Shown piece by piece: positions 20,874-37,092 of a DNA stretch of 64,000 bases. The notes beneath the pieces are model-generated. The model was given only the letters and a program-made list of their open reading frames with translations. It did not search any database and was not told where the DNA came from. Position 1 is the first letter of the stretch; each line of letters begins with the position of its first letter. The position numbers and the translations under genes are program-made. Source of the DNA: Escherichia coli (GTDB taxonomy: Bacteria; Pseudomonadota; Gammaproteobacteria; Enterobacterales; Enterobacteriaceae); the NCBI RefSeq assembly GCF_003334765.1, contig NZ_QOWT01000016.1; one strand, given 5' to 3'.

Positions 20874-20919
20874 AGAGAGAAGATGTGCCGGATAGTTTAT
20901 CCGGCACATGAACAACAGA

Positions 20920-24429: not shown

Positions 24430-26412
24430 TTAACGGCTCTGCTTTCTCAACAAATAGATAAAATATGGCGCGCCGATAAAGGTTGACAGCAGCCCCGCCG
24501 GGATCTGGAATGGAAACAGCACCATCCGCCCACACCAGTCAGCGAACACCAGCAGTAAACCACCCACCAGCGCCGAAATTACGATGTGTGGCATCGTCCG
24601 TCGAAAGCCCATCATCCGCGCAATATGCGGTGCCATTAAACCAACAAAACTCAACGGTCCAATAGTCATCGTCGCGGTCGCCGTCAGGCAAGCCGCTAAC
24701 AGCAGCAGCGCAATTCGCGTCGGCGTCAGCGCCATTCCTACGGCTCGGGCGGTATCACCACCCAGCGGTAAAATGGTCAGCCAGCGGCGGCACAGCGGGG
24801 TAATCGCCAGCAAAATCACCATCACAATTCCGGTGCGCCAGACCTGCGCATCGGTCGCGTTGTAGGTCGAACCGGAAATCCAGGTCAGCACTTGCGCCAT
24901 TCGCGGGTCACCACTTGCCTGCAACATCATCAAAAGCATGGTGAACGCGGTGCTTAACGCCATCCCCGCCAGTAACATACGGTGTGGGGAAAATCCACCG
25001 CGGCCGGCGGCGATCATAATGATCAACAGCGTCACCGCCGCGCCGAGACTGCCTGCAGGTAACAGCCAGCCAAAGGCATTACCCGGCACCAGAAACAGCA
25101 TCAACACCACGCCAAACGCCGCGCCGGAGCTAATCCCCAGCACTTCCGGGCTTGCCATCGGGTTTCCGGTCAGTCGCTGAATAATACAGCCCGCCACCGC
25201 CAGCATGACGCCCGCAAACAGCGCCGCCATAATTCGCGGCCAGCGCCAGGGCATTAAATCCTCGAGCAACGCCCCGCTCGCCCACGTCCAGCCGTGCGCA
25301 TCACGACCAAACGACAGCGCCACCACCACAGCCATCAACAGCAGCACGCCGCCCGCGAGGGCAAACGCCAGCACATGTTGGCGTTCAGCCGCGACACGAT
25401 CGTTGACCTTCATATCCGGCGCGCTAATGCTGCGTAAACGCGGCAACAGCCACAGTAGCAGCGGCGCACCGATCAACGCAGTGACCGAACCGGTGGACAC
25501 TTCCATCCACACGCGAGTCAGCCAGAGGATGATTTGATCGGAAAGCCAGAGGATCAGCGCACCAATCAACGACGCCAGCATCAGTCGTGGCAGCAGACGC
25601 CGCGCCCCCAGCATTTTTGCCAGCAGCGGCGCGAACAACCCGATAAAGCCGATAATCCCCACAGCGTTCACCAGCAGCGCACTGATGACAATCGCCAGCG
25701 ACAGCGCCGCCAGACGCGCAAGCGACAAGGCCAGCCCGAGATTGCGCGCCACGCCATCATCAAGCCCCATCAGGGTTAACGGACGAAGTAGCAGCAACGT
25801 CAGCATCACACCGCCCAGCAGCTGCGGCCATAAACGCTCAACGCCGCCCCAGTCGGTTTGCGTCAGCGTTCCAGTGCTCCACAGAAACATGCTTTGCAGT
25901 TGGTCATGATGGAAGATAACCAGTAACTGATTGATTGCGCCGCAATAAAGGCTCACTACCAACCCCGCGAGAATCAGCGTTACCGGCGACAGCCGTTTCC
26001 CCCACGCGACGCCAAAGACAATTAAGCCAACAACACAAGCCCCTGCCAGCGCAGCAAACTGGCTCGCCATCGCACCAGGGATCGCCCAGAGCGTAGTGAC
26101 GGTAATCCCCAGTTGCGCGCCTGTAGCAACGCCAAGCGTCGTCGGCTCCGCCAGCGGGTTACGCAGCACTTGCTGAAACAGCACGCCCACCAGCCCCAGA
26201 CCCGCGCCCACCAGCAGCGAAATCGCCAGACGCGGCAACAAGCTGTAGTGAAAAATCATCTGCTCGATGACGTCAATATCCGGCGACCAGGCAGCCTGCG
26301 CCCACTGGCTACGCGGCAGCGCCTGCGAGAAGTTCATCCAGGTGAGCGCCGTAGCGACAATCACTAACAGCGCCAGCAATAACGCCGGGAAAAGCGCAAT
26401 TCGTTTACTCAC
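24430..26412 (-). CDS. fhuB: Ferric hydroxamate ABC transporter permease (fused duplicated FecCD domains)
   Basis: 660-aa hydrophobic ORF; GTG start at 26410-26412 overlapping fhuD stop (GTGA). Confidence 0.93.
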   Translation of the reverse strand: MSKRIALFPALLLALLVIVATALTWMNFSQALPRSQWAQAAWSPDIDVIEQMIFHYSLLPRLAISLLVGAGLGLVGVLFQQVLRNPLAEPTTLGVATGAQLGITVTTLWAIPGAMASQFAALAGACVVGLIVFGVAWGKRLSPVTLILAGLVVSLYCGAINQLLVIFHHDQLQSMFLWSTGTLTQTDWGGVERLWPQLLGGVMLTLLLLRPLTLMGLDDGVARNLGLALSLARLAALSLAIVISALLVNAVGIIGFIGLFAPLLAKMLGARRLLPRLMLASLIGALILWLSDQIILWLTRVWMEVSTGSVTALIGAPLLLWLLPRLRSISAPDMKVNDRVAAERQHVLAFALAGGVLLLMAVVVALSFGRDAHGWTWASGALLEDLMPWRWPRIMAALFAGVMLAVAGCIIQRLTGNPMASPEVLGISSGAAFGVVLMLFLVPGNAFGWLLPAGSLGAAVTLLIIMIAAGRGGFSPHRMLLAGMALSTAFTMLLMMLQASGDPRMAQVLTWISGSTYNATDAQVWRTGIVMVILLAITPLCRRWLTILPLGGDTARAVGMALTPTRIALLLLAACLTATATMTIGPLSFVGLMAPHIARMMGFRRTMPHIVISALVGGLLLVFADWCGRMVLFPFQIPAGLLSTFIGAPYFIYLLRKQSR

Positions 26413-28146: not shown

Positions 28147-30390
28147 TTAGAAACGGAAGGTTGCGGTTGCAACGACCTGACGTTCTGCGCCCCAGAAGCA
28201 GCCATAAGTGTTAAAGCAGCTGGCGACGTATTCACGATCGAACAGGTTGTTAACATGCAGCGCCACGTTGGAGCCAGCCATGCCGACTCGCGCCAGATCA
28301 TAACGTACTAACGCATCCACGACCGTATAACTTCCCACTTTAAAGGAGTTAGCCGGATCACCATAACTGGAGCCAGTATAACGACCACCGGTGCCCAGCG
28401 TCAGACCTGAAAGCGGACCGTCAAAGAAGGTGTAGTCAGCCCACAACGAAGCCATGTGTTTTGGCACCTGTGCAGGCGTATTGCCTTTATAGGTAGTATC
28501 GGTGGTGTATTCCGCATCGGTGTAAGTATAAGAACCGACTACGTTAACACTCGCCGACAGCGCCGCTTTCGCTTCGATTTCTACGCCACGTGCGCGGATC
28601 TCGCCACCTTCAACCGAGAAGAAGGAACCCTCAGGGTCCGCCATCAGGTTGTTGGTTTTAGTGAGATTATACACGGCACCAGTAACTACAATCGGACGAT
28701 CTTCCGGTACATATTTCACGCCGACTTCATACTGCTTACCTTTAGACGGTGCGAAAATATTACCATCCTTCCCAACTTGCGAAGAAGGTTCAAACGATTC
28801 GCTATAGCTGAAGTAAGGTGTTACACCATTATCAAACAGGTAGTTAACACCACCACGCCAGGTAAACTGTTTGTCATCACGTTTATCGGTCGTCCCGGCA
28901 ACGCGGTTAAGAGATTCTTGATCTGCCCAGTCATAACGACCGCCTAGGGTGACCAGCACTTTATCCCACTGCGCCTGATCCTGAACATAAACGCCCGTTT
29001 GTTTCTGTTTATTCAGAATGCGGTAAGGGCCGGAGTTTGCCGGATCTTTGGCATTGAAGTCGAAATCGGTATTCACCGGATTGTACAGATTGAGCAGTGG
29101 CACAGAGTCGTCGTAACCAAACCAGGCGTTGATGTCATTACGCATACGCATAAAGTCGACACCGGTCAGCAGGGTGTGGTCGATATCGCCAGTGGCAAAC
29201 TTGCTCTGCAACTGGGTATCAACGGAGAAGTTTTGCAGCTTCTCATCATCAACGACGTATTTACGTGCCAGATAATGGCCTTTATCCGCTGGCGCTAATG
29301 CCGCACACTGTTTGCTGTAAGCATTCGCCGGATCGGAGCAGACGCCGTAACCATAAACGCTGTTTTGCGAGGTTTTGTTTTCAGCAAAGCGCAGGTTCTG
29401 ACGCACAGTAAAGGTGTCGTTAAATTCGTGATCGAAGCTGTAGCCGACCATCTTCTCATTACGAGAATAGGTGTTGTTCTTCGCCCCTTCATTAAAGTCT
29501 GTCGGCAGACGCTTACCGTTCGGCAGCGGCTCAACGGTTCCCTCTTTCGGCAACCAGCCGTAATAACCGGTTTCCGGCTCGTTCTGGAAGTAAGAAAGGA
29601 AGGTAAAATTGGTTTTATCATCCGGACGCCAGGTGAACGCCGGTGCAATAGCATAACGCTGCTCTTCTGACCCTTTCTGCTGGGCATTGGCAGAACGCGC
29701 AAGACCGGTCAGGCGATAAGAGTAAACACCGTCATCATCCAACGAATCGCTAAAGTCAAAACCAGTCTGGAACAGGCTGTCAGTACCGGCTTTAAACTGA
29801 ACTTCTTTCAGCGGTTCGGTGGTCGGACGCTTGCTGACCATATTCAACAGGCCGCCAGGACTGCTTTTACCGTAAAGCACGGAAACCGGGCCACGCATAA
29901 TTTCAGCGCGTTCCAGCATATACGGGTCAATGACCGCATCGTTATAGAAGTTGCCCTGCAACTTCAGGCCATTCAGATAGTTATTCTGGCTTTGGCCTTC
30001 TGCCGCAAAGCCGCGAATGATCAGGTGGTCATAGGTGTTGGATGCGCCACGCGTACCAACAGAGACACCCGGCGTGTAGCTAAGCGCTTCTTTTACCGAC
30101 TTCGGCTGATGCAGCGCCATCTCTTCGGCGGTCACAACAGAAATAGACTGTGGCACTTTTTGAATCGGCGTATCGGTTTTAGTGCCGGTAGCAGACTGTC
30201 GCGCCGCAATAGTTGCAGCAGGCCCCCATGCGCTTTCTTGCGGCGCAGGTGCAGCGGTAACGGTGATAGTGTCTTCTTTCGGTTCAACCGCTGCCTGTGC
30301 ATAAACAGACATGCCGCTAACCGCTGTGGCTACTACAACTGCGATTTTACGCAGTGAGTGTTTTGGCTGAGCAGTTTTGGAACGCGCCAT
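28147..30390 (-). CDS. fhuA: TonB-dependent outer-membrane ferrichrome receptor
   Basis: 747-aa ORF with signal peptide, N-terminal TonB-box-like DTITV, C-terminal aromatic residue. Confidence 0.95.
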   Translation of the reverse strand: MARSKTAQPKHSLRKIAVVVATAVSGMSVYAQAAVEPKEDTITVTAAPAPQESAWGPAATIAARQSATGTKTDTPIQKVPQSISVVTAEEMALHQPKSVKEALSYTPGVSVGTRGASNTYDHLIIRGFAAEGQSQNNYLNGLKLQGNFYNDAVIDPYMLERAEIMRGPVSVLYGKSSPGGLLNMVSKRPTTEPLKEVQFKAGTDSLFQTGFDFSDSLDDDGVYSYRLTGLARSANAQQKGSEEQRYAIAPAFTWRPDDKTNFTFLSYFQNEPETGYYGWLPKEGTVEPLPNGKRLPTDFNEGAKNNTYSRNEKMVGYSFDHEFNDTFTVRQNLRFAENKTSQNSVYGYGVCSDPANAYSKQCAALAPADKGHYLARKYVVDDEKLQNFSVDTQLQSKFATGDIDHTLLTGVDFMRMRNDINAWFGYDDSVPLLNLYNPVNTDFDFNAKDPANSGPYRILNKQKQTGVYVQDQAQWDKVLVTLGGRYDWADQESLNRVAGTTDKRDDKQFTWRGGVNYLFDNGVTPYFSYSESFEPSSQVGKDGNIFAPSKGKQYEVGVKYVPEDRPIVVTGAVYNLTKTNNLMADPEGSFFSVEGGEIRARGVEIEAKAALSASVNVVGSYTYTDAEYTTDTTYKGNTPAQVPKHMASLWADYTFFDGPLSGLTLGTGGRYTGSSYGDPANSFKVGSYTVVDALVRYDLARVGMAGSNVALHVNNLFDREYVASCFNTYGCFWGAERQVVATATFRF

Positions 30391-30429
30391 TGGTATATCT
30401 CTGATGTAAAGTGAATGATAACGTAAACG

Positions 30430-30462
30430 AGAATGATTATTATAAAGATAAGATAATATTCG
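30430..30462 (-). promoter_or_regulatory. Fur-box-like operator in fhuA promoter
   Basis: Minus-strand ttatctttataataatcattctc resembles the GATAATGATAATCATTATC consensus, 40-70 bp upstream of fhuA start. Confidence 0.5.
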
Positions 30463-30609
30463 AAACGCTGGCGGGTTCGCAAGCGGTACGCAATCTGAGC
30501 GTTCCTGAAGGGTTAATAAACAACCAGATGAAAAGAAAGGGTTAATATCTTAGATGGGATGTTATTTTACCGGATGGCAACTCGCCATCCGGTATTTCAC
30601 GCTTAGATG

Positions 30610-33144
30610 TTAATTACTACCAAACATATCCTTGATCCAACCGGCTACACCGTCGCTGTCTTTCTGCTCTTGCTGAGCAGGTTGCTGTTGCGGCTGTTGC
30701 TGCGGCTGAGAAGACTGATCAAACGGATTGCCTGACGGCTGCTGCTGCATCTCGCTCTGCTGGCACAGCGATTGCGGATCGCTGGTCCAGACCGGCAAGA
30801 TACGCATGCCACCGCTGCAAACAAAGTTGCCGTCGTAGTCCACGCCCATATCTGCAATATCTTCTGGCGGAACAAGATTCAGCGGCGTTGGCGTCTGGTT
30901 AGCCAGATAACGCTGATAAATCGACATTGCCCCGCTGGCACCATACAGTTTGGTCGGCTGGTTGTTATCACGGCCGACCCAGGTGATGGTCACCGTGCTG
31001 CCGTCAATGCCCGCAAACCAGGTATCTACGTTATTGTTGGTAGTCCCTGTTTTCCCTGCCAGATGCAGGTTCGGGTATTTCGCCCCAAGCTGACGACCCG
31101 TACCGCGTTGTACCACCTGCTGCATGGTCCATAGTGTCAGATACGCCGCCTGCGCCGGAACAGCGCGTTCCGCCTGCGGGAAGCTCTGATACAGCACTTT
31201 GCCATCTTCCGCGATTACCGAACGCAGCGCAGAAAGCGGTGCACGGTTACCACCGCTGGCGATGGTCTGGAATGCCTGCGCCACTTCGATTGGCGTTAAG
31301 TTCAACGCCCCCAGCAGCATTGCCGGAACCGGATGCAACTGATCTTTCGGTACGCCCAGTTTAATCCAGGTCTCCGTAACCGCAGGCAGCCCCAGCGCCA
31401 TCCCCAGATTTACCGTCGGCACGTTCATCGAACGGGTCAACGCATCCACCAGCATCACTCTGCCGCTTTCGCTATAACGACGGTCATCATTCTGCGGTGA
31501 CCAGACCTGGCCATTCGGCTGACGCAGCGCAATTGGCGCATCCGCAATCCACGTATTCAGACGATAGATTTTCGGCTGGCTTAAGGCCGTCAGATAAGTC
31601 GCTGGTTTTGCAAGGGAACCAATCGAACGACGCGCCTGCATCGCACGGTTGTAGCCCGCAAACTGCGGCTCAGAACCTCCGACCATCGCACGAACTTCAC
31701 CACTAAAGCGGTCGACGACCACAATCGCAGTTTCAAGATCGCTCAACTTACGCTGTTTCTTCAGTGCCGGAATGCCTTCCACGGCGGCTTTTTCTGCCGC
31801 GTCCTGGGCCACCGAGTCAAAGGTAGTGAAGATCTTCACGCCGGAGAGATCTTTTACCTTATCGCCCAGTTTTGCCTGCAGCTCCTGACGCACCAGTTGC
31901 ATAAAGGCTGGCTGAGGAGAGATCACCCCACCGCGCGGCTGAACCCCCAGCGGACGGGCACTCAACATGTCATAGAGTTCTTGATCAATAATCTGTTGCT
32001 GTTGCAGCAGACGCAGCACCAGATTACGTCGCTCCAGCGCCAGTTTTGGGTTACGCCACGGGTTGTAGATGGACGCCCCTTTCACCATACCGACTAACAG
32101 CGCCTGCTGGTCGAGGCTTAGCTCTTCTACCGGGCGACCAAAGTAATACAAGCTTGCCAGCGGGAAGCCGCGGATTTCGTTGTCGCCGCTCTGACCGAGA
32201 TACACCTCGTTCATATACAGCTCAAGAATACGGTCTTTGCTGTAACGCGCGTCCATGATCAGCGCCATGTAAGCTTCGTTCGCTTTACGCCAGTAAGAAC
32301 GCTCGCTGGAGAGGAACAGGTTTTTCACCAGCTGTTGCGTCAGCGTACTCGCACCCTGTACCGTGCGTCCGGCGGTCAGGTTTGCCAGCACCGCACGTCC
32401 GATTGAGTAGAGACTGATTCCATCATGCTCGTAAAAATGACGGTCTTCTGTCGCCAGCAAAGTATCCACCAGCAAATCCGGGAAACCACTGCGCGGCACA
32501 AACAGACGCTGCTCACCGTTTGGCGAAGAGATCATGGTGATCAGACGCGGATCAAGACGGAAGAAACCGAACTGACGGTTGTTCTCCATATTGACGATCG
32601 TCGCCAGATGATCGCCATCAAAGGTCAGACGCGCGCGCACCTGTCCTTCTTTACTGTCCGGGAAATCAAACGGACGGCGAATCATCTCAATGCTGTTGGC
32701 CTGCACGGTAAATTCGCCAGGACGGGTCATTTTCGACACCTGACGATACTGGGTCGCCTCCAGCAGCTTCACCATCTCGTTCTTGCTGATGGTCATGTCT
32801 GGCTCAAGATTGACCATTCGGCCATAAACTGCCGCAGGCAGTTGCCAGACCTTGCCATCAATACGGCTACGAATTTTTTGATCGAGATAAACGCCGTAAA
32901 TGGCGATCAGCACGGCAAAAACGATAGCCAGTTTTAGCAGTAGCCATAGCCAGCCGCGTTTGCCACGAGGCTTACGCCCTTTGCCTTTGCCCTTACCTTT
33001 GCGCGGCATCGGTTCTTCATCCTCATAGTCATCATAATCGTCGTAATCATCGTCATCTTCGTAACGACGACGGCTTACCTTTTGTTTGACCGGACGCGTC
33101 GGTTTCCCTTTGCGTCCAATTGGCTCGCGGTCATTCCCGGCCAT
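30610..33144 (-). CDS. mrcB: Penicillin-binding protein 1b (bifunctional glycosyltransferase/transpeptidase)
   Basis: Start placed at ATG 33142-33144 ([14 protein letters not shown]...), 844 aa; acidic then basic N-terminal tail, TM segment, transpeptidase motifs. Confidence 0.93.
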
Positions 33145-33241
33145 GCTTTTTCTCCGCAATATTCAGGCGCAAAAGCCCGATTTTCTGTTCTTCTGTTACA
33201 AGACAGAAGAAGATATCTCTCAAAATTTGTGCTCGATCGGT

Positions 33242-33331
33242 CCCCTCTCCCTTGAGGGAGAGGGTTAGGGTGAGGGTGAACGTGCGCGCTGATGCCCTCA
33301 CCCCGGCCCTCTCCCACAGGGAGAGGGAGAA
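33242..33331. repeat. Pair of inverted about 40-bp palindromic intergenic repeat units
   Basis: cccctctcccttgagggagagggttagggtgagggtgaa (33242-33280) and gccctcaccccggccctctcccacagggagagggagaa (33293-33331) are near reverse complements; each contains a ccctctccc/gggagaggg hairpin. Confidence 0.75.
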
Positions 33332-33339
33332 AACCAACC

Positions 33340-35769
33340 TTACGAATACTTTTTCGTCCGTCGCGTCGGTGCAGTATTTGCCGGGTCGTCCGGCCAGACA
33401 TGTTTGGGATAACGCCCTTTCATCTCTTTTTGCACCTCACGGTACGCTCCTTTCCAGAAGGCGCTCAAATCTCGTGTGATTTGTAATGGCCTTTGGGCAG
33501 GTGAAAGCAACTCCAGCACCAGCGGCACGCGCCCCTGGGCGATCGTCGGATTGGTGGCCTCGCCAAACATCTCTTGCATTCTCACCGCCAGCGCGGGCGG
33601 GTTATCTTCATGATAACGAATGGCGATCCGGCTTCCCGTCGGCACAGTGTAATGCGCAGGCAATTCACTATCCAGACGTTGCTGCATTCCCCAATCAAGT
33701 AATCCGCGTAGTGCCTGATAAATGTCGAGTGATTTCAGGCCGCGTAGTGAATGTACGCCAGTCATATGTGGCAGCAGCCACGTTTCCAGCGCTGCCAATA
33801 AACTTTCATCATCAACCGCTGGCCAGTCATATTCCGGCAACCACTTTGCGGCGCATAACAAACGCAAGCGTAGCTGTTCCGCTTCCGCCGTCCAGTTGAG
33901 CACGCTTAAACCTTTATCACGGATGCCATTAAGCATCGCCTGATGCAACTCGTCTTCTGACGGTTTCGCCAGCGGCTGCACTTTCACCGTCAACTGACCG
34001 ATTTGTAGCCGACGCCAGGCTTTCAGCGTACCTTGCGCGTCATCCCACTCCACAGTGTCAGACTGCTGTACCAGCTGCGGGCAGCGTTGTACTAACTCAT
34101 CAATATCGACCAGCAGCGCCAGTAAAATCCGCGCATCCGGCGAGGCGCTGCCCTGCAATAATAACGGTGCGATCAACCATTCGTGGCGGCTTAGCGCGTC
34201 GTTGGCATCGAGCATCGCTCCCATGCCGTTTGCCAGTTGATAGCGTCCATCTTGCCCACGGCGACGAGCAATGCGATCGGCAAACGCCCCGGCAAGTAGC
34301 GGCGCGATAAGCGAACTGTCTGCCTCACCGCCACGTACGTTTAAGCGTTTTAACAGTTGCTGACTACGTTGCTGCCAGGCTGGTTGATTGCGCGAAAACG
34401 CCACGCCCAGGTCACTATTGCCCATCCGTGGCGGCTCTTCGAGAATGGCGGCAATTTTTGCCGCGGTAGCAGCTTCGTCGTCGTTCTTCGCGCTAACCAG
34501 CATTGCCGCTAAACGCGGATCGTTACCCAGCGCTGCCATTTTTTGCCCTTGCGCACTAAGCCGTTCACCCTCCAGTGCCCCCAGCATTTGTAACAGACGT
34601 TTCGCGGCCAGTAGATTCACTACTGGCGGTTGATCCAGCCAGCTCATCTGCGCCGGATCGCTGCATCCCCATTGCAGTAATTCCATCAGCAAACCGGAAA
34701 GATCGCTTTGTAAGATCTCCGGTTCACTTTGCGCCGCGGCGCGTTCTGCTTGTTCTTTGGCGATTAAATGCAGGCTGATACCCGGCTCCAGACGCCCGGC
34801 GCGCCCGGCACGCTGCGTCATGGATGCCTGGCTAACGCGTTGAGTAATCAGTCGCGTAAGCCCCGTGCGCGGATCAAAACGCGCCACACGCTCCTGGGCA
34901 CAATCCACCACCAGACGAATACCTTCAATGGTTAAACTGGTTTCAGCAATATTGGTCGCCAGCACCACTTTGCGCATCCCTTGCGGTGCCGGGAGGATCG
35001 CTTTTCGCTGATCGTTCAGCGACAACGCGCCATACAGCGGGCAGAGCAATACATCACTGCCGATGCGCGAAGCCAGTTGTTCCTGCACACGCTGAATTTC
35101 TCCGACGCCAGGTAAAAATAACAGTAATGATCCGCTTTCCTGACGCAGCATTTCAGCGGTGGCTACCGCAACGGCATCGTCAAAACGCTGATGCGCGGGC
35201 AGCGGTAAATAACGGCGTTCAACCGGAAACGAGCGCCCTTCTGAGATGACGACAGGCGCTTCTGGCAGCATTTGCTGCAAGCGGTCGTTGTCCAGGGTAG
35301 CCGACATAATCAGCAGTTTAAGGTCATCACGCAGACCTTGTTGCACATCGAGTAACAGCGCCAACGCCAAATCCGCCTGCAAGCTGCGCTCATGAAATTC
35401 ATCAAGGATCACCAGTCCAACACCGCTCAGTTCCGGGTCACGCTGGATCATGCGCGTCAGCACGCCTTCGGTAACCACTTCCAGGCGGGTATTCGGCCCG
35501 ACGCAGTTTTGCGCACGCATCCGGTAGCCAACGGTATCGCCTGGCTTTTCGTTAAGCAGCTCCGCCAGCCGTTGCGCGACGTTACGCGCCGCCAGACGAC
35601 GCGGCTCCAGCAGGATAATTTTCCCGTTAATGCCGGGATGCGCCAGCAGTTGCAGCGGCAGCCAGGTTGATTTCCCGGCCCCGGTCGGCGCACTTAATAA
35701 TACCTGCGGCGCACAATCGAGAGCGGTAAGTAATTCAGGTAAGACGGCAGCAACGGGCAACGACGACAC
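33340..35769 (-). CDS. hrpB: DEAH-box ATP-dependent RNA helicase HrpB
   Basis: ORF track extends to 35814, but start placed at GTG 35767-35769 (VSSLPVAAVLPELL...), 809 aa; Walker A GAGKST, DEFH box. Confidence 0.9.
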   Translation of the reverse strand: MSSLPVAAVLPELLTALDCAPQVLLSAPTGAGKSTWLPLQLLAHPGINGKIILLEPRRLAARNVAQRLAELLNEKPGDTVGYRMRAQNCVGPNTRLEVVTEGVLTRMIQRDPELSGVGLVILDEFHERSLQADLALALLLDVQQGLRDDLKLLIMSATLDNDRLQQMLPEAPVVISEGRSFPVERRYLPLPAHQRFDDAVAVATAEMLRQESGSLLLFLPGVGEIQRVQEQLASRIGSDVLLCPLYGALSLNDQRKAILPAPQGMRKVVLATNIAETSLTIEGIRLVVDCAQERVARFDPRTGLTRLITQRVSQASMTQRAGRAGRLEPGISLHLIAKEQAERAAAQSEPEILQSDLSGLLMELLQWGCSDPAQMSWLDQPPVVNLLAAKRLLQMLGALEGERLSAQGQKMAALGNDPRLAAMLVSAKNDDEAATAAKIAAILEEPPRMGNSDLGVAFSRNQPAWQQRSQQLLKRLNVRGGEADSSLIAPLLAGAFADRIARRRGQDGRYQLANGMGAMLDANDALSRHEWLIAPLLLQGSASPDARILLALLVDIDELVQRCPQLVQQSDTVEWDDAQGTLKAWRRLQIGQLTVKVQPLAKPSEDELHQAMLNGIRDKGLSVLNWTAEAEQLRLRLLCAAKWLPEYDWPAVDDESLLAALETWLLPHMTGVHSLRGLKSLDIYQALRGLLDWGMQQRLDSELPAHYTVPTGSRIAIRYHEDNPPALAVRMQEMFGEATNPTIAQGRVPLVLELLSPAQRPLQITRDLSAFWKGAYREVQKEMKGRYPKHVWPDDPANTAPTRRTKKYS

Positions 35770-35842
35770 AAAACGCTCCAGAGGGTTAACATTCTTCGCG
35801 CCACATTGTAGCATCGCGGTAATTCATAACCGAGTGCCTCAC

Positions 35843-37092
<1,250 letters not shown>

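Follow-up and report, generated by a model that had tools for sequence, protein, structure and literature searches.

The repeat described here has been catalogued under several names. Holder et al. (2015, PMC4666352) defined the TMECO motif as CCCTCNCCC-N3-6-GGGNGAGGG-N3-GGGNGAGGG, and stated that it was "earlier described as BoxC" and later studied by Hoyne and Maher (2000, 2002) under the name PIT (potential intrastrand triplex) elements. They listed 23 TMECO motifs in E. coli MG1655, with five sites at which an inverted pair is present, always composed of one motif of type A and one of type B (PMC4666352). Copy number can be far higher, with 143 copies given for Enterobacter asburiae LF7a in the same paper. 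The name BoxC is traced to the envM (= fabI) region by reference 46 of PMC4666352 (Bergler 1992), as that work is cited there. We found that the fabI-ycjD spacer of MG1655 holds GGGAGAGGGTTAGGGTGAGGG, a 21-mer identical to the core of unit A described below; it corresponds to TMECO no. 9. The original GenBank record is said to have annotated BoxC units of 56 bp (51-59). A second catalogue was provided by Kaplan et al. (2016, PMC5100583), who described G-quadruplex motifs of the form G3 N1-7 (three times) G3, with the loops AGA/TTA/TGA in HPG1 and AGA/CCG/TGA in HPG2. The term BoxC has 0 occurrences in PMC5100583, and the HPG motifs are not linked to BoxC there.

Several other classes of sequence resemble BoxC in part. 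REP sequences with their BIMEs, and the REPIN doublets mobilised by RAYT, are likewise short, GC-rich extragenic palindromes that are often located just past stop codons. REP/BIME and BoxC alike occur as inverted doublets as well as singletons and are polymorphic among strains, but their sequences are unrelated and the third G-block of BoxC is missing from REP. The MITE-like elements ERIC/IRU, RU-3 and YPAL are also small, non-coding and dispersed, form long stem-loops and vary in presence between strains; they possess terminal inverted repeats and TA target duplications (PMC2229807), whereas the BoxC junctions analysed here show no duplication. Rho-independent terminators share with the BoxC doublet a GC-rich hairpin past a stop codon, but the doublet has no U-tract.

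The copy under study is intergenic, bounded by the stop codon of hrpB (33340) and the ATG of mrcB (33144), in the 64,000-nucleotide stretch of E. coli DNA that was analysed (the window). Both flanking genes had been named correctly in the preliminary description of this DNA. The hrpB-mrcB spacer of 195 nt is an exact string match to MG1655 164535-164729, and window positions are converted to MG1655 positions by subtracting them from 197874. The region comprises the following features:

33340..35814, minus strand: hrpB coding sequence, with the stop codon at the 33340 end
30610..33144, minus strand: mrcB (PBP1b) coding sequence, with the ATG at 33144-33142
33228..33336, no strand assigned: BoxC doublet as a composite running from TGTGCTCGATCGGTC to GGGAGAGGGAGAAAAC, about 108-109 bp, the stretch common to other loci
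33243..33277, plus strand: BoxC unit A (type A, second loop TTA), catalogued as TMECO no. 2 and HPG1 no. 6; MG1655 164597-164631
33294..33327, minus strand: BoxC unit B (type B, second loop CCG), catalogued as TMECO no. 1 and HPG2 no. 5; MG1655 164547-164580
33278..33293, no strand assigned: central spacer of the doublet around GCGCGC, predicted from folds and the inverted repeat to be the tip of a long hairpin or cruciform made from both units
33243..33315, plus strand: internal direct repeats, CCCTCTCCC at 33243-33251 and at 33307-33315, 64 nt apart
33255-33266 and 33267-33278, plus strand: tandem 12-mer AGGGNGAGGGTN, a deletion breakpoint repeat
33188..33211, minus strand: conserved stem-loop, separate from the repeat, with arms 33188-33196 and 33203-33211 (perfect 9 bp) and a 6-nt loop
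33145..33223, minus strand: conserved block of about 80 nt directly upstream of the mrcB ATG, TTGAGAGAT...GCGGAGAAAAAGC, delimited by alignment

The two inverted units are one copy of the E. coli BoxC family, a type-A/type-B inverted doublet that is probably carried as a passenger without host function. The pair is already known and has been catalogued by exact coordinates under the names BoxC, PIT, TMECO and HPG1/HPG2. Table 1 of PMC4666352 contains CCCTCTCCCTGTGGGAGAGGGCCGGGGTGAGGGC as no. 1 (164547-164580, plus strand, type B) and CCCTCTCCCTTGAGGGAGAGGGTTAGGGTGAGGGT as no. 2 (164631-164597, minus strand, type A). These coordinates are exactly those of unit B and unit A, and the pair 1+2 is among the five A+B pairs of MG1655 (PMC4666352). 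In PMC5100583 both sites are assigned to hrpB-mrcB and appear as the G-quadruplex motifs HPG1 no. 6 (midpoint 164608, minus strand) and HPG2 no. 5 (midpoint 164569, plus strand). The earlier suggestion of a dispersed intergenic repeat family resembling box-C-type elements was thus right, down to coordinates printed in PMC4666352. In its consensus, its inverted pairing of A (TTA) with B (CCG), its intergenic site and its MG1655 coordinates the element itself is no different from BoxC/PIT/TMECO. With HPG1/HPG2 it has the same two sites and G-rich cores in common, the difference being one of structural reading, G-quadruplex instead of triplex. The current RefSeq annotation of MG1655 contains no repeat feature at the locus, and an Rfam scan of 32500-34000 (E <= 10) returned only sub-threshold matches to microRNA-type hairpins, which reached at most 29.4 bits against 74.

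The preliminary description had noticed two inverted hairpin units of the ccctctccc/gggagaggg type with tails, and these are indeed present at 33243-33277 (plus strand) and 33294-33327 (minus strand). Each contains a perfect 9-bp CCCTCTCCC/GGGAGAGGG hairpin, and the two units are arranged tail to tail. In unit A, read on the plus strand, the C-stem CCCTCTCCC (33243-33251) is followed by the loop TTGA (33252-33255), G-stem 1 GGGAGAGGG (33256-33264), the second loop TTA (33265-33267) and the G-stem 2 or tail GGGTGAGGG (33268-33276). Unit B, read on the minus strand, has the same C-stem CCCTCTCCC (33327-33319), the loop TGT (33318-33316), G-stem 1 GGGAGAGGG (33315-33307), the second loop CCG (33306-33304) and the tail GGGTGAGGG (33303-33295). 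Hence the TMECO pattern is found in unit A at 33243-33276 (plus strand) and in unit B at 33295-33327 (minus strand), and the pairing of the two follows the rule for such doublets, TTA in A being combined with CCG in B in inverted, tail-to-tail order. Both units also match G3N3G3N3G3N3G3, from 33256 on the plus strand and from 33315 on the minus strand. Over 27 nt, 81% of the positions in the arms 33250-33276 and 33295-33321 are complementary.

The 21-nt core pattern occurred twice in the window, compared with 0.00 expected from 100 shuffles. Perfect hairpins with 9-bp arms and loops of 3-8 nt gave 21 matches (about 12 distinct sites) in the window, where composition-matched shuffles averaged 1.2; the 195-nt hrpB-mrcB spacer contains three of these roughly 12 sites. 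When the 108-nt composite was folded as DNA, under a model that covers Watson-Crick hairpins only, both strands behaved alike (z = -5.6 and -6.0 versus shuffles). A 201-nt RNA context in the hrpB/mrcB sense folded into one long hairpin of -96.7 kcal/mol (z = -6.8).

The earlier statement that the units are neither CRISPR repeats nor classical REP holds. A CRISPR array was rejected because there are just two units, in inverted order, and because the best CRISPR-DR model scored 15.9 bits against a gathering score of 39. REP/BIME was rejected because the GCCGGATG...CATCCGGC-type core is absent from 33183-33331. REP-type hairpins were observed elsewhere in the window, at 20884, 30569 and 55875.

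A genome-wide copy-number search for the unit, which had been proposed in the preliminary description, revealed a multi-copy family. In 5,340 of 5,426 complete E. coli genomes the 108-nt query had matches at 1-27 places in each genome, with a median of 12, and almost all matches were chromosomal. The motif was confirmed at nine other loci that were fetched, including fabI, fepB, ygfF, alx, lldD, argF, ilvC and phnD. The gene ycjD (DUF559), located beside the BoxC copy at fabI, was considered as a mobilising gene and discarded, as no supporting pattern was seen at the other loci.

Convergent doublets from five loci, hrpB-mrcB, phnD-phnE (in some strains), fepB-entC, ygfF-gcvP and alx-sstT, could be aligned end to end. 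Their homology extends outside the triplex motif, with GTGCTC..G.C.GTC at the A end and GAGAAAAC at the B end, and the doublets of fepB-entC, ygfF-gcvP and alx-sstT have about 35 nt further in common. Because the alignment reaches beyond the triplex motif, the homologous unit is the doublet and not merely the motif of 34-36 nt. At phnD-phnE most E. coli strains carry a BIME (two REPs) exactly where other strains have a BoxC doublet, the latter being a composite copy with the same ends as that of hrpB-mrcB. The BIME allele does not align with the BoxC allele.

The alleles present at hrpB-mrcB itself were surveyed in the same 5,426 complete E. coli genomes, with the following counts:

full pair (at least 80% of the 180-nt spacer query covered): 3,266 genomes, about 60%
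at least 80% of the spacer plus flanks covered: 3,536 genomes
intermediate alleles, by difference: about 270 genomes, about 5%
short spacer, by difference: about 1,890 genomes
direct match to the empty junction: 1,469 genomes
E69-type allele in opposite orientation: 32 genomes

The size of the deletion class is an estimate taken from the difference between the counts for the spacer query and for the spacer plus flanks. An empty spacer of 93 nt, with about 14 nt of unrelated sequence in place of the element, is found in 27-35% of E. coli genomes. Filled and empty alleles diverge from within the hrpB stop codon, which is TAA in K-12 and TGA in the empty alleles, and they also differ in the stretch from the stop codon to the conserved block. 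Neither a target-site duplication nor a clean insertion scar was detected at the hrpB-mrcB and phnD-phnE junctions, so that the element may have been acquired by transposition, by template switching or by recombinational import.

The deletion alleles have exact end points. In L005 and L018 exactly 64 nt are gone between the direct CCCTCTCCC copies, which leaves a single hairpin, and in L006 exactly 12 nt are gone, corresponding to one copy of the tandem AGGGNGAGGGTN. The phnD-phnE copy (L096) has undergone the same 64-nt deletion independently. That deletions at both hrpB-mrcB and phnD-phnE end at internal direct repeats fits replication slippage between the element's own repeats, and agrees with the "palindrome effect" of Holder et al. 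(PMC4666352). A possible explanation may lie in the folding of the doublet. When single-stranded during replication or transcription, either strand could fold, with a 9-bp GC hairpin in each unit or, across the entire doublet, a hairpin or cruciform measuring about 90 nt. The G-rich strand might add an intrastrand purine-motif triplex or a G-quadruplex, as the in-vitro publications indicate. Such folding would bring the short direct repeats together and favour replication slippage, which in turn would give rise to the recurrent 64-nt and 12-nt deletion alleles and to the published 'genomic instability', that is the raised local sequence variability around the motifs (PMC4666352). We judge local instability to be the main effect of the doublet.

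One scan of a genome collection yielded the hrpB 3' end and downstream sequence for 80 species representatives, 76 of which gave an extractable spacer. The spacer is empty and 93 nt long in E. albertii, E. whittamii and Escherichia sp. MOD1-EC7003, and by parsimony, as judged from these sequences, the empty spacer would be ancestral for the genus Escherichia. In Escherichia sp. E1V33 the 64-nt deletion allele of the K-12 type is present, so that the insertion must be old or have been exchanged between lineages. "E. coli" E69 possesses an A+B doublet at hrpB-mrcB in the opposite orientation, and strain SCPM-O-B-8794 an internal-deletion derivative of the E69-type doublet. Taken together, the alleles of E69, SCPM-O-B-8794 and E1V33 indicate that acquisition or exchange happened more than once. 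The K-12 composite, when inverted, aligns best to the copies in the same slot of E69 (95/102 identical) and of Lelliottia sp. V86_10 (97/108), while the adjacent hrpB DNA of K-12 and Lelliottia is just 80.8% identical. An in-situ inversion of an E69-type allele was considered as the source of the K-12 allele and rejected, since the outer flanks differ too.

Outside Escherichia, one to five BoxC units occupy the hrpB-mrcB slot in Enterobacter, Lelliottia, Leclercia and related genera. In the Enterobacter group the units usually end with GGGAGAGGGAGAAAAC, directly before the conserved mrcB-proximal block. Some spacers of this group have, after the BoxC unit, a separate hairpin with a T-run behind it. 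Citrobacter and Salmonella possess other fillers or none, the shortest spacers measuring 79-81 nt. The alternation of BIME and BoxC at phnD-phnE, together with the fillers of other genera, implies that the slot after the stop codon serves as a landing site for extragenic palindromes.

That the entire composite of about 108 nt, with its ends, recurs at other loci and in other genera, and at hrpB-mrcB in both orientations, suggests that the doublet is moved or copied as a whole. Selection acting on the sequence, and not recent spread, might account for the near-identity of the core across genera. It is conceivable, although we consider it rather unlikely, that the BoxC doublet is the replicating unit of an unrecognised element mobilised in trans, comparable to REPINs, which would target the stop-codon-proximal slot also used by BIMEs. 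Such mobilisation would explain why the whole composite of about 108 nt, ends included, is common to several loci, why Escherichia and Lelliottia are 90% identical in the element and 81% in the adjacent hrpB DNA, and why either orientation is found in the hrpB-mrcB slot and BIMEs alternate with BoxC at phnD-phnE. A transposase for BoxC was not found in this analysis, and to our knowledge none is known.

The spacer contains a third hairpin. In the preliminary description it had been placed at 33190-33212 and grouped with the repeat. It does exist, at 33188-33211, so that the positions were off by 1-2 nt; the grouping, on the other hand, was wrong, as the hairpin persists in alleles that lack the element as well as in other genera. 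It was present in the empty E. coli alleles and in 76 of the 76 Enterobacteriaceae spacers recovered. Further components of the conserved block to which it belongs are the Shine-Dalgarno sequence and a second, small GGC/GCC helix; in other species the shortest spacers (79-81 nt) contain nothing but this block. No match in the Rfam scan of 32500-34000 covered the hairpin (33188-33211), and a literature search for a published mrcB leader structure gave nothing specific.

The hairpin forms a helix of ten pairs in which 94.1% of the cells of the alignment are paired and 6 of the 10 pairs show compensatory double changes, for example from CTGT/ACAG to TCAC/GTGA or CCTCC/GGGGG. The covariation score, which covers the stem-loop helix together with the small, almost invariant second helix, was 0.274 compared with 0.163 in shuffles (0 of 500 reached 0.274) and with 0.057-0.127 when the partner was slid. 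The same helix was predicted by RNAalifold. Wobble pairs numbered 62 on the mrcB-sense strand versus 9 on the antisense strand, and the proportion of paired cells was 94.1% in sense versus 86.1% in antisense. One-sided wobble pairs of this kind point to an RNA structure in the sense transcript. To judge from this comparison of sequences, the stem-loop 33188-33211 may be a cis-acting RNA structure in the leader of mrcB (PBP1b) that is conserved across the Enterobacteriaceae.

The stem-loop would be part of the leader if transcription of mrcB starts upstream of 33211. The published prediction of a sigma-70 promoter for mrcB, inside the conserved block, consists of TTGAGA (33223-33218) and TGTAAC (33200-33195), separated by 17 nt (PMC3946193); it would imply a start downstream of 33188, which would speak against an RNA role. 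In E. coli the predicted -10 hexamer, TGTAAC, coincides with the loop of the stem-loop; the loop is unconserved in other genera. The hexamer assigned as the mrcB -35, TTGAGA, begins about 5 nt downstream of the doublet, and given this short distance to the predicted -35 it may affect mrcB expression.

Most likely, the doublet is a passenger without host function and not a regulator. This conclusion draws on the dispensability of the pair, which follows from its absence from 27-35% of E. coli and from sister species, and on negative tests with other copies of the family: PIT elements had no promoter or terminator activity (Hoyne and Maher 2002, according to the summary given in PMC4666352).

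Of the functions that might nevertheless be proposed, the one that survives best is a role at the RNA level like that of REP/BIME, in which the 3' hairpin would keep 3' exonucleases off the hrpB mRNA or serve as a processing barrier separating the hrpB and mrcB messages. We regard this as improbable. The element is dispensable, it is found in both orientations, and single units elsewhere are as common upstream of genes as they are downstream (PMC4666352). These points have to be set against the strong predicted RNA hairpin, a position right after the stop codon that is typical of REP, the many family members that follow an ORF at a distance of 11-60 nt (PMC5100583) and the existence of BoxC doublet and BIME as alternative alleles at phnD-phnE.

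The preliminary description had also suggested a transcription terminator or insulator separating hrpB from mrcB, a proposal that is not supported and very unlikely to be correct. The doublet directly follows the hrpB stop codon, and in the hrpB-sense RNA it could indeed make a hairpin of about 90 nt with high stability (201-nt fold, -96.7 kcal/mol, z = -6.8), but none of the three hairpins is followed by a U-tract, and scanning both strands of 33000-33500 yielded 0 terminator-like and 0 promoter-like sites. The inactivity of PIT elements as terminator or promoter, as summarised in PMC4666352, also speaks against it, as do the dispensability of the pair, missing from 27-35% of E. coli and from sister species, and the natural alleles in either orientation.

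About as unlikely is a DNA structural switch, by which an intrastrand triplex, G-quadruplex or cruciform would tune the adjacent mrcB promoter or cause a regulated pause of replication. In vitro, very stable intrastrand purine-motif triplexes arise from single-stranded type A and type B oligonucleotides (CD, NMR, Tm 70-82 C), and CD signatures of a K+-dependent transition between G-quadruplex and hairpin have been reported in vitro (Kaplan et al. 2016, PMC5100583). Both units match G3N3G3N3G3N3G3, and the doublet ends only about 5 nt upstream of the predicted -35 TTGAGA of mrcB. When the complementary strand is present, however, only duplex DNA is formed, and published in-vivo DMS footprinting gave no protection; moreover, the genes flanking family members share no function (PMC4666352) and the element is optional. 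Finally, the idea that all three hairpins are chance palindromes of a GC-rich spacer, for which the short 9-bp arms and nothing else can be quoted, is ruled out for practical purposes by the shuffles (0 matches expected), by thousands of family copies across E. coli genomes and by the covariation of the third hairpin between genera.

With the doublet read as a BoxC passenger, the new observations concern its history and surroundings. They comprise the allele frequencies in 5,426 genomes and the deletion breakpoints on internal direct repeats, the empty spacer in sister species and the opposite-orientation allele at hrpB-mrcB, the slot common to BIMEs (at phnD-phnE) and to BoxC of the Enterobacter group (at hrpB-mrcB), the homology of the doublet over about 108 nt between loci, and a covarying mrcB-proximal stem-loop that is set apart from the repeat. 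The main value of the analysis is one of bookkeeping: the proper label for the locus is BoxC/PIT/TMECO doublet, and flags such as REP, CRISPR-like repeat or new terminator should be avoided. Because RefSeq is silent at this locus, future readers are likely to notice the doublet anew. The locus is also a compact natural experiment on the arrival and decay of palindromes, as sequenced strains display an empty spacer of the ancestral type, two orientations of the pair and two deletion derivatives of the slippage type. The doublet adjoins the promoter or leader of mrcB, the gene of a major peptidoglycan synthase, and the covarying stem-loop is the part most likely to be worth an experiment.

The hrpB-mrcB spacer of the window, which carries the BoxC (PIT, TMECO) doublet of inverted units A and B, is identical to that of E. 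coli K-12 MG1655, and no exact string match to the MG1655 record NC_000913.3 was found for a 4.5-kb stretch around it (window 30000-36000), so the window may derive from a strain closely related to MG1655. The hrpB stop codon (window 33340-33342) is TAA in alleles filled with the doublet versus TGA in empty alleles. Because the two alleles already differ within the stop codon, the variable segment begins exactly where the coding sequence ends. The slot can also hold an A+B doublet in the orientation opposite to that of K-12, as in E. coli E69, Lelliottia sp. V86_10 and the comparison stretch L017; 32 genomes labelled E. coli have this allele. The cores of this doublet hardly differ from the units of K-12, even in Lelliottia; the Lelliottia hrpB DNA beside the doublet shows an identity of only 80.8%.

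At the mrcB side of the spacer lie two further features:

window 33145-33223, minus strand: conserved block of about 80 nt upstream of the mrcB ATG
window 33188-33211, minus strand: stem-loop inside this block

The block was kept in all 76 Enterobacteriaceae spacers recovered and is overlapped by a published predicted sigma-70 promoter, TTGAGA-17-TGTAAC (PMC3946193). Six of the ten pairs of the stem-loop show compensatory changes, and wobble pairs numbered 62 on the mrcB-sense strand versus 9 on the antisense strand. The stem-loop had no match in Rfam, and a published description of it was not found in the literature.

The arrangement of BoxC units varies between sites. In the A+B pair of the lldD-trmL spacer of MG1655 (TMECO 17+18) the units stand head to head, pointing apart and separated by 59 nt, whereas the other four A+B pairs are tail to tail. 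In Enterobacter-group genera (L092, L046, L059, L060, L074, L081) the BoxC unit precedes ACTAAAG, then a hairpin whose sequence varies, then GCTGTTTATTTT; the hairpin and GCTGTTTATTTT together look like a terminator. The spacer of Enterobacteriaceae bacterium UBA3516 (L092) contains this BoxC-hairpin module of about 96 nt in three tandem copies, and the 509-nt spacer of L060 has five BoxC units.

We also observed a degenerate BoxC-like hairpin, CCCTCTCCC-TGAAAGA-GCGAGGGGG, overlapping the stop region of ycjD (DUF559) in MG1655 (L004 2890-2920); the full BoxC of the fabI-ycjD spacer lies some 150 nt away.

Elsewhere in the window the following were recorded:

window 20884-20910, 30569-30595 (fhuA-mrcB spacer), 55875 and 59200: perfect hairpins with 9-bp arms of the CCGGATG type
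window 26209, minus strand: G3-tract quadruplex-type motif GGGCGCGGGTCTGGGGCTGGTGGG

The motif at 26209, the sole one of its type in the window besides those of BoxC, has no relation to BoxC. The CCGGATG-type hairpins are probably ordinary REP elements and offer a useful contrast to BoxC.

Both kinds of repeat are represented among other strains of E. coli in the spacer between phnD and phnE:

L002 1501-1608: phnD-phnE spacer
L095 151-301: phnD-phnE spacer
L096 151-256: phnD-phnE spacer, 64-nt deletion derivative

Three alternative alleles occur here: a BoxC doublet 94% identical to that of hrpB-mrcB, its 64-nt deletion derivative and, in the majority, a BIME (two REP sequences). Since one slot holds either BoxC or BIME, two unrelated families of palindromic repeats are allelic at a single site.
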